In this document: positions 24,586 through 39,460 of the stretch, in pieces
Numbering within the stretch: the first letter of the stretch is position 1
Layout of the letters: every line of letters starts with the position of its first letter
Source: a virus
Lineage: Duplodnaviria > Heunggongvirae > Uroviricota > Caudoviricetes
Reading direction: 5' to 3' (one strand)
Length of the DNA stretch: 55,029 nt
IMG/VR virus record: IMGVR_UViG_2859793810_000007
Position numbers and translations under genes: made by a program
The notes under the pieces: generated by a model
The model's database searches: none
The model's input: only the letters and a program-made list of their open reading frames with translations
Told to the model about the DNA's origin: nothing

Positions 24586-24864
24586 CGAGTAAATCCGGTA
24601 ATTTATCCCCCGCACGCGCGCACTGATTCGCTCCCTTAGCAATAAGGATTTTCAGATGATCAATATGACGCGGCGTTAAATCCGGGAACTGTCGTTGCAT
24701 GGACAAAGGAATGGAGTCAAGCGTACTGGATAAAGCCATCGCCAGCTTACTAAGGGCAAAAATACAAAATCCGGTATCGATAAGATTTCCTTTTGACACC
24801 TGATTTTTTAACTGCTGTGCGACAGCCTGTTCTGCGGTCAGTTCCCATCTGGCAATGAGTAGTT
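24557..24864 (-). pseudogene. Nu1: terminase small subunit Nu1, 3-prime fragment (5-prime part replaced by IS600)
   Basis: ...TGFCIFALSKLAMALSSTLDSIPLSMQRQFPDLTPRHIDHLK... matches the C-terminal half of lambda Nu1; ORF runs into the IS600 end. Confidence 0.75.
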
Positions 24865-24907
24865 TGAGGTGTACTGGCAATAGCGGACACTACCATTTGT
24901 TCTTTTT

Positions 24908-25726
24908 TTAAGCAGCCATCTGATGATATTTTTCCCTGAAGGCTGCCGGGGAGATATTCCCCAGACGAGAGTGACGACGCTGACGATTGTAGAAAATCTC
25001 AATGTATTCCCGTATTACTGAGATGGCTTCATCCCGGTTATTAAAACGATAGTGGCTCAGGCTCTCATTTTTCAGCGTTCCCCAGAAGCTTTCCATCGGA
25101 GCATTGTCGTAACAGTTACCTTTACGCGACATTGATGTTTTCAGACCAGACTGCTCCTGTATGACCCGGTAATCGTATGCGCAGTACTGTGAACCTCGAT
25201 CAGAGTGGTGGATTAGCCCGGCAGGTGGGCGCTGGCTCCTGAGCGCCATAAACAGGGCTTTACCTGTCAGCTCTTTTGTCATGCGCTCTCCCATGGCGTA
25301 GCCGACAATTTCACACGTATAAACATCTTTGATGCCAGCGAGGTACAACCATCCCTCCTGTGTGGCAACATACGTCAGGTCCGCCACCCAGACCTGATTT
25401 GGTGCTGTAGGAGCGAACGTCTGGTTCAGCAGATTTGGCGCAACTGGCAGATTGTGGTTCGGGTTCGTAGTCGCTCTGAACTTGCGTTTCTGCTTACAGC
25501 GTAGCCTTAGCTCCTTACGAAGACGTGCCAGTCGGTCACGACCAACGATGATGCCATTCTCTGCCAGCTCCGTCTGGAGCCGCCGGGTTCCATATGTTTC
25601 GCGAGTGCGGATATGTGCCACCTTAATCTCCGGTTTTAGCCGCTCATCACTTTGTTTTCTGTCTGAGGGTTCATGCTGTACCCAGTTGTAATAACCGCTC
25701 CTGGATACACCAAATACCTGACACAT
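24908..25726 (-). CDS. IS600 transposase OrfB (DDE integrase domain)
   Basis: 272 aa; ...HSDRGSQYCAYDY... IS3-family catalytic region. Confidence 0.9.
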   Translation of the reverse strand: MCQVFGVSRSGYYNWVQHEPSDRKQSDERLKPEIKVAHIRTRETYGTRRLQTELAENGIIVGRDRLARLRKELRLRCKQKRKFRATTNPNHNLPVAPNLLNQTFAPTAPNQVWVADLTYVATQEGWLYLAGIKDVYTCEIVGYAMGERMTKELTGKALFMALRSQRPPAGLIHHSDRGSQYCAYDYRVIQEQSGLKTSMSRKGNCYDNAPMESFWGTLKNESLSHYRFNNRDEAISVIREYIEIFYNRQRRHSRLGNISPAAFREKYHQMAA

Positions 25727-25761
25727 CGCTTCAATGGGAAATTGTTGTCGCCATTGTTCGA

Positions 25762-26064
25762 TTAACGCGTATTTTTCAGCGACTCCTGTGCAAAATACGC
25801 TGTTGCTTTTTTTAATATATCTCGCTCAAGGCGAGCTTCATTTAACGCCTTACGCAGTTGCAGAATTTCAGATTCCAGTTCAGCCAGCGTGCGGGAACCA
25901 GGAGTACCGAGCCCTTTTCTGGCGGCGGTAACCCATTGTCCTAAAGTGCCTTCAGGAAGAGATAATCGGGAAGCGCCTTCACTGATCGAAAGTTGATTTT
26001 CAAGAACCGTTCTGACAGCTTCGGCTTTGAACTCTTTAGAGTAACGTTGGGTTTTTCTGCTCAT
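25762..26064 (-). CDS. IS600 OrfA (HTH/leucine-zipper)
   Basis: 100 aa MSRKTQRYSKEFKAEAVRTVLENQ...; A AAA AAA slippery motif near its 3-prime end for OrfAB fusion. Confidence 0.9.
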   Translation of the reverse strand: MSRKTQRYSKEFKAEAVRTVLENQLSISEGASRLSLPEGTLGQWVTAARKGLGTPGSRTLAELESEILQLRKALNEARLERDILKKATAYFAQESLKNTR

Positions 26065-26128
26065 TATTAGCTCCTTCTGATGCCATTCTATTTCAGGAAG
26101 GAGTGTCCGTTAAACTCAGGCTACCTCA

Positions 26129-28266: not shown

Positions 28267-28341
<75 letters not shown>

Positions 28342-28344
28342 ATA

Positions 28345-28420
<76 letters not shown>

Positions 28421-28422
28421 GC

Positions 28423-28499
28423 TGGCCCACCACCGAGGACTCGAACCTCGCACCGTCAACTTAGAAGGTTGATGCTCTATCCGGATGAGCTAGTGGTGG
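28423..28499 (-). tRNA. tRNA-Arg (anticodon UCU)
   Basis: rc CCACCACTAGCTC...TCAACCTTCTAAGTTGA...GGTGGTGGGCCA; anticodon loop CUUCUAA. Confidence 0.75.
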
Positions 28500-28500
28500 T

Positions 28501-28577
28501 TGGTGGCCCTTGCTGGACTTGAACCAGCGACCTGGCGATTATGAGTCGCTCGCTCTGACCAACTGAGCTAAAGGGCC
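28501..28577 (-). tRNA. tRNA-Ile2-like (anticodon CAU; could be Met)
   Basis: rc GGCCCTTTAGCTCAGTTGGTCAGAGCGAGCGACTCATAATCGC...; close to E. coli ileX-type sequence. Confidence 0.75.
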
Positions 28578-29444: not shown

Positions 29445-29702
29445 TCAGCGCAGCGCCTCCTGCACCAGTTTTTCAAACTTTCCGACTCTGGTTTCCAGCT
29501 CTGCCACACAGTCCACCAGCTCATCTACTGCTTTCTGTGCGCGATGCTTCGCCTGCATCAGTTCCCGAAGCGCGGGTACCATATCTTTACGGATAGCATC
29601 TTTTGTTATGCCCGTTTTTTCGAGTTGTTCAGCATGACGCAGCATTTCCTGCGCGTGTTTACGCAATTGTTCAGGGGTAAAAGTCATTGTCTGGTTGTTC
29701 AA
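29445..29702 (-). CDS. hypothetical 85-aa helical protein
   Basis: ATG overlaps the stop of the DnaB-like gene (translational coupling); coiled-coil-like; no family recognised. Confidence 0.4.
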   Translation of the reverse strand: MNNQTMTFTPEQLRKHAQEMLRHAEQLEKTGITKDAIRKDMVPALRELMQAKHRAQKAVDELVDCVAELETRVGKFEKLVQEALR

Positions 29703-31090
29703 AAGAAACGCTCCATCTTACTGCTGTCAGTTCGTTTATTACTGTATCTGCGCGGATTGCCGGGCTTCATGGGAGTGGAAAGCACCCGTGCACTTTCCTG
29801 GTCCACAGGCAGAAAATGTCCGTTATAAAAACGCCGGTAAATCGTTCCCAGAGAACCGTTACGTTGTTTCGTGATATTGATTTCTGCGATGCCCCTGGCC
29901 TGCGTATCCGGGTTGTACACTTCATCCCTGTAAAGCATCAGAATGATGTCTGCATCCGCCTCTATTTCTCCGGAATTTTTCAGGTCTGAGTTCATGGGAC
30001 GTTTATTGGGTCTGGACTCCACACCGCGGGAGAGCTGGCTCAGCGCAATCAACGGAAAACCACCGGATTTTGCCAGGCCTTTAAGCCCCTTTGAGATTTC
30101 ACCCACGGCAAGGTCATGACGCCCCGTGGTTCGGGTTTTTATCAGCCCGAGATAATCAACCACCACCAGCGCCGTTTCCGGATATTTAATCAGGTGGTGT
30201 TTCGTTGTTGCGCATATCTCATCAATGGCCAGGTTCGCCTGGTCCACCATCCAGATATTGCGCCCGGTCATCCGCCCCACCCCTTGTGAGAAACGCGTCC
30301 AGTCTTCATCTTCAAAGTGAGCCACAGATTTCAGGCGTGATACTGGCATCCCTCCAGCCGCAGACACCATACGTTCACCAATCTGGATGTTCGCCATCTC
30401 CATGGTGAACAGAAGCACACCATGCCCCTGCTCAGTCACCTTGTCGATGATGTCCAGCGCAAGTTCGGTTTTCCCCATCGAAGGACGGGCGGCAATGAAT
30501 ACCAGGTCTCCGGGCTCCATACCGCCTGTTTTTGCGTCCAGTTCATCAATACCGGTCATCAACGTCCTGGATTTCTCCAGCCCCTGATTCCGGCATTCAA
30601 CACGCTCAACCACTTCCGGAAGCACATCATCAATATGTACCGGCTGAATGACGCCCTTTCCTGTCGACAGTGTGACCATCATGTTCTGCGCATCCTTCAG
30701 GGCATCTTCAGCTGCTTCACAGGTATGCGCATCACGTAATTTCTGCAGCGCCTCATTCAGTGTTTTTTCTGCATCGCGCAGTGCGGCATTGCGCCGCAAC
30801 GCTGCAACATAGTGCTCCAGTGAAGACTTCACCCAGGTTTTACGCCCGGTATCAGTAATCACCGGGGCAAGTTCCGGCATCTCATTACACAACAGCACGG
30901 GGTCAATCACTCCTGAAACACGGGCCTGTCTGCAGATGCCTGTATAGATATCCTGATACGCTCGTACAGAAAAAACGTCCGCTGGCAGTGTGGCCAGAAT
31001 ATCCATCACTTCAGGATCTGCTCCGCGCAGAAAGAACGCGCCGATGACAGCGCCTTCAAGGTCATCGTTACGCCATACTGGAGTTGTCAT
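29699..31090 (-). CDS. replicative DNA helicase (DnaB family)
   Basis: 463 aa; Walker A ARPSMGKTELAL, Walker B VVVDYLGLI, C-terminal RecA-like fold motifs. Confidence 0.9.
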   Translation of the reverse strand: MTTPVWRNDDLEGAVIGAFFLRGADPEVMDILATLPADVFSVRAYQDIYTGICRQARVSGVIDPVLLCNEMPELAPVITDTGRKTWVKSSLEHYVAALRRNAALRDAEKTLNEALQKLRDAHTCEAAEDALKDAQNMMVTLSTGKGVIQPVHIDDVLPEVVERVECRNQGLEKSRTLMTGIDELDAKTGGMEPGDLVFIAARPSMGKTELALDIIDKVTEQGHGVLLFTMEMANIQIGERMVSAAGGMPVSRLKSVAHFEDEDWTRFSQGVGRMTGRNIWMVDQANLAIDEICATTKHHLIKYPETALVVVDYLGLIKTRTTGRHDLAVGEISKGLKGLAKSGGFPLIALSQLSRGVESRPNKRPMNSDLKNSGEIEADADIILMLYRDEVYNPDTQARGIAEINITKQRNGSLGTIYRRFYNGHFLPVDQESARVLSTPMKPGNPRRYSNKRTDSSKMERFF

Positions 31091-31965
31091 GCAGCCACAC
31101 CTCTGATACGAGAACGGTAACTGGGCCAGTTAAACGACAACCAGTTGCGTCCCCCGTCTGTGATCCTGTCGGCAATTCGGGGACTGATGAACGCCCACAA
31201 CTCTTCCGGTGAGAGGTTACTGATCAGAATGGTGGGCAAGATACTTTCGTACCTGGCGTTGATAATTTCCTGCAAAATAGCCATTTCAGCCGCGCTGCCA
31301 AACTGAACGCCAACTTCGTCGATGATCAGCAAATCCATTGACGCATAACGCTCAATAACTTCATCCGCTGTTTTTTCGCTGTCATTCCGCCAGCAATTTT
31401 TCACAGCACGGGTAAGGCGCATCACGTCGGTGATCTCCACACTGGCCAGATAGTTACGGATGATGTGTTTTGCCATAGCCACAGCCAGATGATTTTTTCC
31501 GGTACCACAACTGCCGGTCATAACAAGACTGGTACCGTTCTCCAGCATATCTGGCCAGTTCTCCGCATAGCGGCGACAGGCCGCAAGATTTCTGGCTGCG
31601 CCAGGATTAACCTCCAGATAATTATCAAACTCGCAGTCCCGAAAACGCAGGGCAATTCCGGCGTTATCAGTCAGCTCTTCCGCCTTGATGGACGACAGCT
31701 CCATGGTCAAATCGTTGGCCTCAGCGATTAAGCAGTCAGGGCAGCATGAAATTTCTTCTCTGTCCTCGCCATTACGATCGCTCCACACCAGTATATGCGT
31801 GTGATATTCGCCATGTTTTTCGCAATATCCGCGACCTTCACGCATCAGGCAGGAACGATAAGGCCATGGCTTTTCGCCCTTCTGAGCAAATGCAATCTCT
31901 GCCCGTAACTCATCCATTCGCGCCTGTAGTCTTTTTTGTTGTTCACGCAGGTTAAACGTCATCAT
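31087..31965 (-). CDS. DnaC/IstB-like helicase loader (AAA+), with N-terminal Cys/His cluster
   Basis: Walker A GSCGTGKNHLAVA, Walker B LLIIDEVG; ATG at 31963-31965 with GAGGTGA RBS; stop overlaps DnaB-like start. Confidence 0.8.
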   Translation of the reverse strand: MMTFNLREQQKRLQARMDELRAEIAFAQKGEKPWPYRSCLMREGRGYCEKHGEYHTHILVWSDRNGEDREEISCCPDCLIAEANDLTMELSSIKAEELTDNAGIALRFRDCEFDNYLEVNPGAARNLAACRRYAENWPDMLENGTSLVMTGSCGTGKNHLAVAMAKHIIRNYLASVEITDVMRLTRAVKNCWRNDSEKTADEVIERYASMDLLIIDEVGVQFGSAAEMAILQEIINARYESILPTILISNLSPEELWAFISPRIADRITDGGRNWLSFNWPSYRSRIRGVAA

Positions 31966-32057
31966 CGCTGTCACCTCAGAATGTCTGAAGTGGCACACTG
32001 AATTTGGCCACCTGAACAGAGGTGATATGCTCACCTCAGAACAACACAGGTGCTCCA

Positions 32058-33226
<1,169 letters not shown>

Positions 33227-33234
33227 CCACTTCA

Positions 33235-33944
33235 TTGCGCAGTTCTTCACTTGCTGAGGAAAAAACAAGCGTTCCATCCTTCTCGACATACCCATCCGTT
33301 TCAAGCAGACCACACAGCATGCCTATACGCGTTGATTTATTTGCGGAAAAAAACACACGAGGGATGAATTTGTTTTTTGCTGTGCACCCCATTAGTCCAT
33401 AACCTCGCAGGGTCTCCATGAGTGGATTTACCTGACCACGCGCCGTTGATATCAGCCAGTCCTTACCATCTCCAGAGAAGTTGTAATCAGGCAGTTCAGC
33501 CTTCATACGCTCGATCATGTATGGCTCGACGTTTGAAAACTTCACGCTCCCATTGCTAAGACTACCATCCCCGAGAAGGGAGCCGATAACCCATGCTAAT
33601 GGCTCTGAGTGGTCGCCAAAGTCACCAGTTATTTCAGGAATCCTAACGCCATTTTTGTGCCTCTTCGTTTCACTCAACCGCTTCAACCCGAAGGTATCTA
33701 TCACGCGGCGTTTCTCGCCTTTCGTGAATCCACGACTAGTGACCTCCCATAGGTGATCGCCTGCGCAATCAACATAACGACCATCTTCAAATGTGACTCG
33801 GTAAACATCTCTAACACCCTGCGGGAATATCCCAGTGACAGTTGACGGATTGCCGTCTACTGACGCCACCTGATCGCCAATTTTTACATTCCCGTGAGTA
33901 GTCCATGTCCCATCAGCTAAAAGAATAGGCTCATTCAGTGGGCA
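33235..33944 (-). other. intein remnant (Hint N-terminal block plus LAGLIDADG homing-endonuclease motifs), C-terminal splicing region missing
   Basis: block A-like CPLNEPILLADGT (compare CFAKGTNVLMADGS of a yeast VMA intein); LAGLIDADG-type motifs AWVIGSLLGDGSL (33558-33596) and IGMLCGLLETDGYV (33285-33326). Confidence 0.65.
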
Positions 33945-35060
33945 TGCCTTTCCGTGACCGTGCACACCATTGACCAGCGTCAACTCTGCCTCACGGAACT
34001 GGAATTTATCTGCCAGAGATTCCCACGGTGGATTAAACAGATACTGCTGCTTGCCGTAGAAAGCGTTGATAGTGTCCTGGTAAAACTCTCGCGCACTGTA
34101 GAGTTCTTCAGGATCGAAGTAGGATGCCGTGCCGATGTACTGCCAGATTTCATCCTCGGTAACACCGTTCATCAGGCATTCGTTGATGTCTTTGTACGGC
34201 AGAGTAACAAGACGGCAACGATGTTCACCGAGTCGGCTTACGATTTCCCTTGCGGCTTCACGACCAACATCATCAACGTCCATCGAGATGAATATTTCCT
34301 CAAACCTGTCGAGGTTGTGATACTCAAACTCAATCCACTGTTGCTTAGCGCCTTTCCCGCCACCAAACGGCACGGATAACGCCGAGATGCCGTATTGCGC
34401 ATAGCTCATACAATCAATTTCGCCTTCGCAAAGCACAACCACCCTCACGCCAGCGTCCAGAGCCTGCCATCCGAACAGGCAAGGTTCGCAATCACCTTCT
34501 GCCATAATGACTTTCTTCCCGTCCGGGCGCTCAGTGCTGATTCGCTTGACCTGCAACAACTCACCATCGCGTTTGTACGGAAGCACCAGAGCATCCAGTT
34601 CTCGTTCTCCATTCCACACCTTGCCGCTGACAACCTCGTAGCGCTTTACGACTTCTGGCGATATGCCACGCGATTGCAGGTACTCAAGATGGGATTCTGT
34701 TCTGGTAACGTAGCGGGCGATTTTCTTACGATCAGGTCTGGAGAATTTCTTCTCACGTCTGGCATCGAAATGGTGATCGTCATCCTTGATACCGAGAAAT
34801 GCTTTCGCTTCCTGCATAGCCTGATGCAGGTTAATTCCACGACATGCCATCCACAAATCAAGCATGTCACCGCCGTCTCCCTCAGCGAAATCAGCCCATT
34901 TTTTCTTGCCGATAAGGTTGACCTTAAGGCTGTTTCCCTTGTCACCGTTGACGTTACCGGCAACCCACTCATGCCCCTCTATCTTGCCGTTTGGCAACAG
35001 GTGCGGAGCCACCCTGTCAACCTGCGCCCAAAGCAGGTCGCTAAGTTCACTTGGCCTCAT
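33235..35060 (-). pseudogene. T7 gp4-like primase-helicase interrupted by an intein and 3-prime truncated by IS911
   Basis: TOPRIM motifs VVLCEGEIDCMS and ISMDVDDVG (34251-34448); P-loop-like NGVHGHGKA (33945-33968) immediately followed by Cys-initiated intein; ORF runs into IS911 right end. Confidence 0.7.
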
Positions 35061-35335
35061 GATTCCCTCAGATTGAGATTTTTAAACCAGAAATCGACAA
35101 ACGAAATACTTAACCAGCCGTGGTTATAACCAGCGACCAGTAGCGATTTGATTTTTGATTTCATGGTTCACCTGTCGAAAAACACATAGCCAGTTTTCGA
35201 TACGGTGATTGCGGATGATGGTCTGGATTGTGGTTGAATGGTTTCTGGCTTCTCGTCGTTCCAGCGCTGACTGAGGTAGCCTGAGTTTAACGGACACTCC
35301 TTCCTGAAATAGAATGGCATCAGAAGGAGCTAATA

Positions 35336-35638
35336 ATGAGCAGAAAAACCCAACGTTACTCTAAAGAGTTCAAAGCCGAAGCTGTCAGAACGGTTCTTGA
35401 AAATCAACTTTCGATCAGTGAAGGCGCTTCCCGATTATCCCTTCCTGAAGGCACTTTAGGACAATGGGTTACCGCCGCCAGAAAAGGGCTCGGTACTCCT
35501 GGTTCCCGCACGGTGGCTGAACTGGAATCTGAAATTCTGCAACTGCGTAAGGCGTTAAATGAAGCTCGCCTTGAGCGCGATATATTAAAAAAAGCAACAG
35601 CGTATTTTGCACAGGAGTCGCTGAAAAATACGCGTTAA
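35336..35638 (+). CDS. IS600 OrfA
   Basis: 100 aa, identical family to copy 1; slippery A AAA AAA at 35587-35593. Confidence 0.9.
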   Translation: MSRKTQRYSKEFKAEAVRTVLENQLSISEGASRLSLPEGTLGQWVTAARKGLGTPGSRTVAELESEILQLRKALNEARLERDILKKATAYFAQESLKNTR

Positions 35639-35673
35639 TCGAACAATGGCGACAACAATTTCCCATTGAAGCG

Positions 35674-36465
35674 ATGTGTCAGGTATTTGGTGTATCCAGG
35701 AGCGGTTATTACAACTGGGTACAGCATGAACCCTCAGACAGAAAACAAAGTGATGAGCGGCTAAAACTGGAGATTAAGGTGGCACATATCCGCACTCGCG
35801 AAACATATGGAACCCGGCGGCTCCAGACGGAGCTGGCAGAGAATGGCATCATCGTTGGTCGTGACCGACTGGCACGTCTTCGTAAGGAGCTGAGGCTACG
35901 CTGTAAGCAGAAACGCAAGTTCAGAGCGACTACGAACCCGAACCACAATCTGCCAGTTGCGCCAAATCTGCTGAACCAGACGTTCGCTCCTACAGCACCA
36001 AATCAGGTCTGGGTGGCGGACCTGACGTATGTTGCTGGCATCAAAGATGTTTATACGTGCGAAATTGTCGGCTACGCCATGGGAGAGCGCATGACAAAAG
36101 AGCTGACAGGTAAAGCCCTGTTTATGGCGCTCAGGAGCCAGCGCCCACCTGCCGGGCTAATCCACCACTCTGATCGAGGTTCACAGTACTGCGCATACGA
36201 TTACCGGGTCATACAGGAGCAGTCTGGTCTGAAAACATCAATGTCGCGTAAAGGTAACTGTTACGACAACGCTCCGATGGAAAGCTTCTGGGGAACGCTG
36301 AAAAATGAGAGCCTGAGCCACTATCGTTTTAATAACCGGGATGAAGCCATCTCAGTAATACGGGAATACATTGAGATTTTCTACAATCGTCAGCGTCGTC
36401 ACTCTCGTCTGGGGAATATCTCCCCGGCAGCCTTCAGGGAAAAATATCATCAGATGGCTGCTTAA
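35674..36465 (+). CDS. IS600 OrfB, 9-aa deletion variant
   Basis: 263 aa versus 272 aa in the other copies. Confidence 0.85.
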   Translation: MCQVFGVSRSGYYNWVQHEPSDRKQSDERLKLEIKVAHIRTRETYGTRRLQTELAENGIIVGRDRLARLRKELRLRCKQKRKFRATTNPNHNLPVAPNLLNQTFAPTAPNQVWVADLTYVAGIKDVYTCEIVGYAMGERMTKELTGKALFMALRSQRPPAGLIHHSDRGSQYCAYDYRVIQEQSGLKTSMSRKGNCYDNAPMESFWGTLKNESLSHYRFNNRDEAISVIREYIEIFYNRQRRHSRLGNISPAAFREKYHQMAA

Positions 36466-36508
36466 AAAAAGAACAAATGGTAGTGTCCGCTATTGCCAGT
36501 ACACCTCA

Positions 36509-36598
36509 CTGATCCAACCACTGCAAAAACCAGTAGCCGGCACTGCCGGCGGAGGTGCCGTAGGCAATGCCTGTTGATATTTTTTCCATCTGATACAT
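36509..36598 (-). pseudogene. pinholin 5-prime fragment (second lambdoid lysis region, truncated by IS600)
   Basis: [30 protein letters not shown] then IS600 end; N-terminus differs from the intact holin at 27759-27974, so not a simple duplicate. Confidence 0.6.
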
Positions 36599-37277: not shown

Positions 37278-37352
<75 letters not shown>

Positions 37353-37355
37353 ATA

Positions 37356-37430
<75 letters not shown>

Positions 37431-37432
37431 GC

Positions 37433-37509
37433 TGGCCCACCACCGAGGACTCGAACCTCGCACCGTCAACTTAGAAGGTTGATGCTCTATCCGGATGAGC
37501 TAGTGGTGG
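37433..37509 (-). tRNA. tRNA-Arg (UCU), second copy
   Basis: identical to 28423-28499. Confidence 0.7.
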
Positions 37510-37510
37510 T

Positions 37511-37587
37511 TGGTGGCCCTTGCTGGACTTGAACCAGCGACCTGGCGATTATGAGTCGCTCGCTCTGACCAACTGAGCTAAAGGGCC
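37511..37587 (-). tRNA. tRNA-Ile2-like (CAU), second copy
   Basis: identical to 28501-28577. Confidence 0.7.
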
Positions 37588-37776: not shown

Positions 37777-38199
37777 TCAAAAAGCAATAACTTTTTTCTC
37801 TATACCAAAAGCCATAACCATTGGTTTGTACAAAATAAATTCTGCCACCTTTAGCCAATGCTCAATGCGTCTTTCACAGGTTCTTAAACTCCATTTCGGG
37901 TGTGCATCATTCAGCAGTTCAGCCATTTTGCATTTGGTCATCCCCCGCCCCTCATACCGTTGCCGAAGGACGCTAATCAATCCTGGATGCTCTGCCAGCA
38001 CCTCACTTATGACCCGATCAATACATAACGCCTCTGCATCAGTACAATGCGCCAGCCAGCTCTTTTGCTTACCGTTAATCATATCCCGCAAAAAAGCCTC
38101 AAGTTCAGACTTGTTCAGACCTGCTTTTTTCATCCTCCGGAGCGCCTCGTTAATTGCCGTTTTTGTCAGCTTTTTAGAGGTCAACATCAGGTTAAACAT
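37777..38199 (-). CDS. putative late-gene regulator in the Q position (C-terminus resembles sigma-70 region 4 HTH)
   Basis: 141 aa; ...ISVLRQRYEGRGMTKCKMAELLNDAHPKWSLRTCERRIEHWLKVAEF...; sits directly upstream of the tRNA array; ATG 20 nt from the IS911 end. Confidence 0.4.
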   Translation of the reverse strand: MFNLMLTSKKLTKTAINEALRRMKKAGLNKSELEAFLRDMINGKQKSWLAHCTDAEALCIDRVISEVLAEHPGLISVLRQRYEGRGMTKCKMAELLNDAHPKWSLRTCERRIEHWLKVAEFILYKPMVMAFGIEKKVIAF

Positions 38200-38291
38200 A
38201 TTCCCCGTCTTACCGCCACTGAAGTGGCACACTGAATTTGGCCACCTGAACAGAGGTGATATGCTCACCTCAGAACAACACAGGTGCTCCA

Positions 38292-39460
<1,169 letters not shown>

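Follow-up and report, generated by a model that had tools for sequence, protein, structure and literature searches.

How far does an intein still deserve the name when an insertion sequence (IS) has removed its end, and can its class be read from what is left? The question is raised by an open reading frame (ORF) in a stretch of 55,029 nucleotides (IMG/VR record IMGVR_UViG_2859793810_000007), hereafter the window, which starts as a phage primase-helicase and breaks off inside an insert in its nucleotide-binding P-loop. A preliminary description, made from the sequence letters, had proposed an intein with LAGLIDADG endonuclease motifs. We identify the feature, with a probability of about 0.95, as a pseudogene fragment that comprises the N-extein and residues 1–238 of the 342 residues of a class 3 LAGLIDADG intein, which interrupts Walker A, between its Lys and Thr, in a T7 gp4-like primase-helicase of a Shigella flexneri lambdoid prophage. 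Its parts are the following (aa, amino acids).

33201–35060, minus strand: ORF of 619 codons (619 aa), from the ORF listing.
33235–35060, minus strand: remnant of the prophage primase-helicase gene, codons 1–609 of the intact 968; homology ends at the IS end.
33948–35060, minus strand: N-extein, aa 1–371, with the primase N-terminal region, TOPRIM and the beginning of the helicase as far as the Walker A Lys (alignment with intein-free mEp043 gp55, phrog_239 and T7 gp4).
34173–34436, minus strand: TOPRIM domain, aa 209–296, with EGEID and DVDD (Pfam Toprim_2 and translation).
33948–33968, minus strand: first half of Walker A, GVHGHGK, aa 365–371; Lys371 is the −1 residue of the intein.
33235–33947, minus strand: intein residues 1–238 of 342, protein aa 372–609; boundaries from intein-free and intact alleles.
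33909–33947, minus strand: intein block A, ACPLNEPILLADG, with Ala1 as a non-nucleophilic first residue.
33741–33782, minus strand: intein block B, GRYVDCAGDHLWEV, with His65 at B:10 and Trp67 at B:12 (aligned to 6RIX).
33558–33590, minus strand: first LAGLIDADG motif, VIGSLLGDGSL (translation), conserved in a paralogous intein.
33285–33326, minus strand: second LAGLIDADG motif, IGMLCGLLETDGYV (LAGLIDADG_3, PI-SceI alignment and translation).

The host gene is, as judged by homology, a T7 gp4-like bifunctional primase-helicase of a lambdoid prophage. In the window ORF, Pfam detects Toprim_2 at aa 209–296 (E = 2.5e-11; 44.2 bits, cut-off 22.1), and the motifs LCEGEIDC and ISMDVDDVG lie inside this match. 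PHROGs assigns aa 4–385 to 'DNA primase/helicase' (phrog_239, E = 3.5e-103), and the start of the P-loop is found at aa 364–385 as NGVHGHGK-A-CPLNEPILLADGT. The TOPRIM, P-loop and LAGLIDADG motifs named in the preliminary description are thus all present in the minus-strand translation where it had placed them. At its N-terminus, aa 5–146 give only partial, sub-threshold matches to the PRK07078 and dnaG models, which bear on the N-terminal zinc-binding subdomain. A GAGG Shine-Dalgarno sequence is located 7 nt upstream of the ORF start. The intein-free allele of the gene contains Toprim_2, AAA_25 and DnaB_C (Pfam) and matches T7 gp4 (5IKN) with E = 2.7e-23 over aa 192–539. In this alignment, GSGMGK/S of the gp4 Walker A motif pairs with GVNGHGK/T of the intein-free allele (a slash marks the insertion site or a junction), in line with the earlier placement in the P-loop of a gp4-like protein. 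The window keeps only TOPRIM and the first half of Walker A from this domain set, and has His at position 367, where all other alleles examined have Asn.

The nature of the insert is established by alleles with and without it. We aligned the window ORF with the intact 968-aa allele of Escherichia coli FDAARGOS_944 (L003; comparison records carry L numbers) and with the 626-aa gp55 of mEp043 (L002). The alignment contains one clean in-frame insert of 342 aa, ACPLNE...YVATHN, between GHGK and TEVV, which places it between the Walker A Lys and Thr (GxxGxGK/T). The exteins of intein-bearing and intein-free alleles are 97–98% identical. The intein-free protein reads GVNGHGK/TEVVGHM, encoded in mEp043 at the site by CACGGAAAA/ACGGAGGTTG, and the codons flanking the insert differ synonymously, AAA/ACG when the site is empty and AAG...ACC when it is occupied. 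Kelley et al. (2016) describe the Lys/Thr position of Walker A as the 'classic' P-loop intein site.

A tblastn search of phage genomes gave nine records with the full insert, while the other listed records stop at aa 372, with identities of up to 97.8%. Records matching aa 1–613 include the Stx2a phages Min27, 24B, F403, F451 and phiXuzhou21 and the Klebsiella phage phiKp_30; those matching aa 1–372 only include mEp043, Sf101, ES18 and epsilon34. This in-frame insert, missing from near-identical alleles in which the host sequence is continuous across the site, decisively identifies the feature as an intein. The preliminary description had named intact homologues without an insert of this size as a refutation, and the outcome goes the other way: the insert of about 342 aa is present in the intact intein-bearing homologues and missing only from the intein-free ones. 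It had also suggested comparing homologues and searching for an intact allele with a C-terminal HN junction. Both searches were productive, the second yielding ...YVATHN/T in the FDAARGOS_944 allele, with which the intein DNA retained in the window is identical at 715 of 715 nt.

Profile and structure searches agree with this identification and favor the LAGLIDADG assignment proposed earlier. In the window ORF, the Pfam family LAGLIDADG_3 is detected at aa 579–611 with 24.1 bits against a cut-off of 22.5, and the match ends at profile position 39 of 82. Both LAGLIDADG motifs keep the conserved acidic residue (LLGDG and LETDG), and the gene breaks 17 codons past the second, so that the two-subdomain endonuclease fold is incomplete in the window. 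The intact insert gives LAGLIDADG_3 with 35.2 bits, plus Hom_end_hint and Hom_end. On its own, the 238-aa fragment matches solved inteins and PI-SceI (E = 2e-6 to 1e-5), and NCBIfam matches to the second half of the ORF are restricted to the intein segments of unrelated proteins (DnaB, RecA, RNA polymerase A'', Tes and RNR). The best solved structure for the intact insert is 6RIX/6RIY (E = 2.3e-9), and PI-SceI is matched with E = 8e-8. The central part of the intact intein is a two-motif LAGLIDADG endonuclease related to PI-SceI.

The motif residues point to a class 3 (Trp-Cys-Thr, WCT) intein, in which the nucleophile would be a block F Cys and not a canonical Cys1, because the first inserted residue is Ala372. 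Class 3 inteins have no nucleophile at the N-terminus; B:12 is Trp, F:4 is Cys, G:5 is Thr and the +1 residue is Ser or Thr, and a branched thioester intermediate at block F is the biochemical criterion (Tori et al. 2010, J Biol Chem 285:2515, PMC2807308). The intact alleles show the complete signature, with Ala1, Trp67, Cys322, Thr340 and Thr+1. Blocks A (ACPLNEPILLADG) and B (GRYVDCAGDHLW) of the window align to solved inteins. In the HMMER alignment to 6RIX, His65 pairs with His65, Trp67 with Trp67, Cys322 with Cys124, and Thr340-His341-Asn342 with Thr143-His144-Asn145. The 6RIX paper describes the class 3 intein of Mycobacterium chimaera DnaB1 (MchDnaB1), with a catalytic triad of Cys124, His65 and Thr143 and with Trp67 as the Trp of the WCT set. 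The window copy keeps Ala1 (Ala372) and Trp67 (Trp438 of the protein); Cys322 (F:4), Thr340 (G:5) and Thr+1 are deleted.

Known inteins resemble different parts of this element. The experimentally characterised class 3 prototype is MP-Be DnaB of mycobacteriophage Bethlehem, with His65, Trp67, Cys320, Thr339-His340-Asn341 and Thr+1 (Tori et al. 2010, PMC2807308). Compared by published residue numbers, the two share a non-nucleophilic residue 1, His65, Trp67, a block F Cys (320 vs 322), THN (339–341 vs 340–342), Thr+1, a similar length (341 vs 342 aa), an embedded endonuclease domain and a helicase-type host. They differ in residue 1, which is Pro in MP-Be DnaB and Ala here, and in phage, host and extein. 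Bethlehem gp51, annotated 'may contain intein', shows no similarity to our intein (best E = 0.95) and contains a different intein. M. chimaera DnaB1 (6RIX/6RIY) matches residue for residue at the WCT positions and the block B His, but is a 145-aa mini-intein that resides in a cellular DnaB and lacks an endonuclease domain. PI-SceI (Sce VMA1) aligns over the second LAGLIDADG motif and its surroundings (E ~1e-7), although it is a class 1 (Cys1) intein of a eukaryotic V-ATPase. Arth_1007 of Arthrobacter sp. FB24 is likewise a dead class-3-type intein in a prophage remnant (Tori & Perler 2011, PMC3196547). It is full length but mutated, with neither Cys F:4 nor His B:10, whereas the window copy has an unmutated N-terminal part and a deleted C-terminal part.

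The intact alleles (Min27, 24B, Stx2a_F403/F451, phiXuzhou21, phiKp_30, 79 E. coli genomes and L041) are 98–100% identical to the retained part and occupy the same site in the same gene. In contrast to the window copy, they keep residues 239–342, with blocks F and G, Cys322 and THN, and the C-extein.

A paralogous intein is found in a neighboring gene family. The DnaB-like helicase adjoining the remnant (29699–31090, minus strand) has an uninterrupted P-loop, RPSMGK/TELAL. Its homologue in Stx2a phages (TL-2011a, ~40 records; L006 1898–4291) harbors an intein of 50% identity at this K/T position (GMGK/T), which keeps Ala1, W, C, THN and Thr+1 and has Met at position 2. The presence of paralogous inteins at K/T of the DnaB-like protein and of the primase-helicase therefore places one intein lineage in the P-loops of two non-orthologous helicases.

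The truncation of the gene involves the following elements.

33201–33233, minus strand: ten codons and a stop that come from the IS end and are foreign to the native protein.
31986–33234, plus strand: IS3-family element, presumably IS911, with orfA at 32058–32360 and orfB at 32387–33226; its orfB-proximal end (IRR) abuts the intein.
35168–35271, minus strand: 3' remnant of the upstream replication gene (O-like, helix-turn-helix), cut by IS600 (alignment with three intact prophages).
35272–36509, plus strand: IS3-family element, presumably IS600, with loss of the early promoter region that lay upstream of the remnant (ORFs and comparison with L041).

The native gene ends at 33235, exactly where the preliminary description had its feature start, and the terminal inverted repeat of the IS3-family element runs from 33234. 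The junction reads ...GCGCAA/TGAAGTGGTCAAC..., or in longer form ...GAACTGCGCAA/TGAAGTGGTCAACAAAAACTGG, with the IRR on the IS side. Its two transposase frames overlap (HTH_Tnp_1, then rve), and its terminal repeats begin TGAAGTGG; from its inverted repeats we take it to be IS911, and we take the element upstream of the remnant to be IS600. Nowhere in the window is intein or primase sequence past aa 613 encoded. The whole window lacks blocks F and G, which precede the junction ...YVATHN/T of the intact alleles, and the Thr at +1, which follows it, in agreement with the earlier remark that the C-terminal blocks and the C-extein are missing.

The earlier claim that IS911 cut the gene holds as far as truncation by the IS is concerned, but the event was not a simple insertion. 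IS911 has no 3-bp target duplication (flanks GTC and TTG). Through the neighboring DnaC-like gene in public assemblies, we found a chromosome, L041, in which the 968-aa gene is intact and has the same surroundings. The window corresponds to L041 with 5303–9980 (4,678 bp, the 4.68 kb lost) replaced by IS911. The rest of the intein and the C-extein are lost, together with ninB, ninE, a toxin–antitoxin pair, antirepressor-like genes and a 302-aa gene, amounting to about ten downstream genes. Compared with intact genes, the remnant shows 99.9% identity for L041 and 99.3% for E. coli FDAARGOS_944. The two base differences from L041 in the retained part are both nonsynonymous, A207V and N367H, the latter inside Walker A, which fits relaxed constraint with n = 2. 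On the other side, IS600 cut into the O-like gene ~210 nt upstream of the remnant ATG, and a promoter and terminator scan around the remnant gave sites at chance level. The window copy is a pseudogene: neither the nucleophile nor the terminal Asn is left, the +1 residue and the helicase are gone, and half of the endonuclease is missing. The window contains three IS600-type copies (35272–36509, 24862–26128 and 47986–49251), and the one beside the intein remnant lacks 25 bp that are kept in the other two and in L041.

For the intact alleles, we propose that Cys322 of block F would attack the Lys371–Ala372 peptide bond, and that the N-extein would then be transferred to Thr+1. Cyclisation of Asn342 and an O-to-N shift would rebuild GVNGHGKT. 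The LAGLIDADG endonuclease would cut intein-free alleles, into which the element would be copied by repair (homing). In the window lineage, an IS911-associated event removed the 4,678 bp containing intein residues 239–342 (with Cys322, Thr340, His341 and Asn342), the C-extein helicase domain and about ten genes, and a separate IS600 event removed the upstream early region. The remnant is able neither to splice, nor to home, nor to work as a helicase.

Several points weigh against this account. Splicing chemistry and homing are what we infer by homology to characterised class 3 inteins; read directly from the sequences are the anatomy of the element, its site of insertion, its motifs, the deletion and the 2457T identity described below. 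The class assignment comes from aligning motifs with a single solved class 3 intein and from published residue numbers, not from a phylogeny. In the window ORF, Hom_end_hint matches aa 379–424 below threshold (E = 3e-5, 24.5 bits against a gathering value of 32.1). Finally, the link to a previously named partial intein, discussed below, is a match of strain, gene, nucleophile and truncation point and not of coordinates.

Three other explanations have to be set against the pseudogene of a class 3 intein. The preliminary description had taken Cys373 as the first intein residue, a canonical Cys1. The element would then be a class 1 intein that starts with an N–S acyl shift by Cys373 and leaves Ala372 in the N-extein P-loop (GHGKA). 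Cys373 is indeed followed by the block-A-like PLNEPILLADG, and Cys or Ser is the first residue of most inteins (Tori et al. 2010, PMC2807308). The intein nevertheless starts at Ala372, with Lys371 at −1, because all intein-free alleles examined read GHGK-TEVV, with no Ala after GHGK, and a start at Cys373 is disfavored because excision there would leave GHGKAT, a broken Walker A. Block A of standard inteins has a conserved Ile at position 8 and a conserved Gly at position 13. Both fall into place when Ala is taken as position 1, whereas counting from Cys shifts each by one. With Met in place of Cys373 in the closest paralogous intein, and the full WCT triplet and Thr+1 present, we regard a class 1 intein as very unlikely. 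A reading without any intein, in which a free-standing or fused homing endonuclease or a BIL/Hint domain forms a permanent part of the protein, could draw on the sub-threshold Hint-domain match and on the missing C-terminal splice junction of the window copy. It has a negligible probability in view of the alleles that carry or lack exactly these 342 aa between exteins of 97–98% identity, and of intact copies that end in THN before Thr+1 and match solved inteins in blocks A, B, F and G. The insert also lies inside Walker A, which helicase function requires to be restored.

The third explanation accepts the intein and holds that the 619-aa ORF is still expressed and useful, as a primase-only protein, as a dominant-negative replication or exclusion factor, or as the N-half of an accidental split intein whose C-half, encoded elsewhere, would be joined to it by trans-splicing. 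The ORF is intact behind its Shine-Dalgarno sequence, the identical protein occurs on 262 contigs with unchanged flanking genes in the complete chromosomes examined, and a C-half ORF lies beside an IS911 end in other S. flexneri genomes. Clonal descent alone, however, predicts such a wide presence. The upstream early region is cut off by IS600, with promoter-like sites at chance level, and the two bases that differ from the intact L041 allele each change an amino acid. Moreover, the break falls inside the endonuclease domain and not at a domain boundary, and the N-half and C-half never occur together at the locus in the genomes examined. A retained function is thus improbable to much the same degree as a Cys373 start, and we keep the pseudogene as our interpretation.

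Comparison of Shigella-type chromosomes places the window copy in an allelic series. The gene is intact and intein-bearing (968 aa) in L041 (3475–6381) and reduced to the N-half with IS911, as in the window, in L034–L036 and L042. Only the C-half is present, behind IS911, in L039 (4049–6381), IS911 replaces nearly the whole gene in L040 (4941–6189), and the gene is absent from L037 (8732–9980), L038 and L043. No genome examined has both halves at the locus; each has one of the two, none, or the intact gene. The C-half ORF corresponds to L032 60–1143, and a protein homology search with it returned C-extein relatives only, with no usable Shigella C-half entry.

The C-half junction (L032/L033 40–80; L039 5290–5300) reads IS911-IRR/CAA/TGGGG, and the junction listed with the C-half is ...CCACTTCA/CAATGGGG. 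The N-half junction (window 33230–33240) and the C-half junction thus have in common the IS end (IRR) and 3 bp, CAA. Scans of viral contigs gave no gene junctions with the orfA-proximal IS911 end (IRL). As a single standard event behind the two IRR junctions, we considered simple insertion, duplicative inversion and recombination between IS copies, none of which yields both. The native sequence by the break, TGGGGTTGTTCAAC, resembles the IS911 end TGAAGTGGTCAAC, and IS911 is reported to insert beside sequences resembling its own ends. We suspect that IS911 may have a target hot spot at the CAA beside TGGGGTTGTTCAAC. If the N-half and C-half were to coexist and be expressed in one cell, the IS would by accident have generated a split class 3 intein, which could restore a working primase-helicase by trans-splicing; in a milder form of this idea, TGGGGTTGTTCAAC in the intein would simply be a hot spot of IS911 rearrangement. 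We consider this proposal highly speculative, and more doubtful still than a retained function of the N-half.

Other features of IS911 at this locus were also observed. The flanks upstream of the DnaC-like gene and of a DUF1133 antiterminator-like gene touch the IRL in some genomes and the IRR in others, at an identical base (L035, L036, L037, L040; window 31986 and 38220). Recombination between IS copies alone should not swap which IS911 end a flank touches. In L035 (7039–8547), the IS911 beside the intein remnant is itself split by the reverse transcriptase gene of a group II intron (RVT_1 and GIIM). The ORFs at 31087–32058 and 37777–38292 have identical first 24 residues, read from the IS911 IRL into the neighboring gene (31966–32058 and 38220–38292, minus strand); these shared starts are either ORF-listing artefacts or possibly IS-driven read-out fusions.

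The preliminary description had called inteins rare in enterobacterial chromosomes, which is not borne out for this element. The intein is present in 79 of 5,426 complete E. coli genomes, always chromosomal and with at least 99% identity, and in several Stx2a phages, and 210 complete E. coli genomes have the uninterrupted site. The 79 occupied and 210 unoccupied sites, like the synonymous difference in the flanking codons, are consistent with what may be a mobile element. The Klebsiella phage phiKp_30 (LC768498.2, 30821–31846) has the same intein with 97.7% amino-acid identity, which extends the element beyond Escherichia and Shigella. In phage Min27 (L001 3001–5909), the 'P' gene is annotated with 860 aa and followed by a separate 111-aa 'DNA primase'. 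Relative to intact alleles, the Min27 C-extein has a frameshift, either a sequencing error or a second route of gene inactivation.

The truncated copy itself has been seen before. Over the 7,860 nt around the ORF, the window is identical (100.000%) to AE014073.1, which encodes the exact 619-aa protein (at 711835–713694) and which we take to be S. flexneri 2a strain 2457T. Databases list the protein as 'putative bacteriophage protein [Shigella flexneri]' (A0A0H2UXW5_SHIFL). Among species-representative genomes, the 36-mer across the junction is limited to S. flexneri SFBU1023 and a single genome labelled 'E. coli'. Tori et al. (2010, PMC2807308) list a partial "ShP-Sfv-2a-2457T-n Primase" intein, "stopping before Block F". 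The window copy agrees with this intein in strain, in host gene, in its lack of an N-terminal nucleophile and in the point of truncation, and is almost certainly the same object, entered long ago in the intein database (InBase). The prophage primase host and the strain are the same, and no difference was detected. A literature search for other mentions of inteins in Stx phages or Shigella returned nothing relevant. The element, its class and its truncated Shigella copy are already known from the intein literature.

The surroundings of the remnant are a mosaic of degraded lambdoid prophage material. From left to right, an IpaH-type effector gene comes first in the window, followed by lambda-like genes for tail, head and terminase, then by IS copies and a four-tRNA cluster. 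Next are the DnaB-like/DnaC-like pair, IS911, the intein remnant, IS600, a second tRNA cluster and a second IS911, followed by head gene pieces of another phage, a Mu-type transposase and chromosomal dcuC. The effector gene (1060–2823, plus strand) lies at the end of the lambda-like tail block and encodes LRR_TTSS and a NEL E3-ligase domain (E = 7e-77). The Mu-type transposase (49249–50883, minus strand; DDE_2, E = 1e-134) is located beside an IS copy and the dcuC-like gene (52495–53982). The four-gene tRNA cluster (Gly-TCC, Thr-TGT, Arg-TCT and Met-CAT) is present on the minus strand in two copies, 28267–28577 and 37278–37587, ~98.5% identical over the 406 nt compared, each near phage antiterminator or lysis genes.

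As a discovery, the remnant carries little weight, and its worth is that of a worked example. A Cys beside a P-loop is not necessarily the first residue of an intein, and a class 3 intein can be recognised from an N-terminal fragment, through Ala1 and the Trp at B:12. The allelic series, from the intact gene through N-half and C-half to near-complete deletion and absence, gives a picture of the erosion of a prophage replication module by insertion sequences. Enterobacterial chromosomes do carry inteins, through their prophages.

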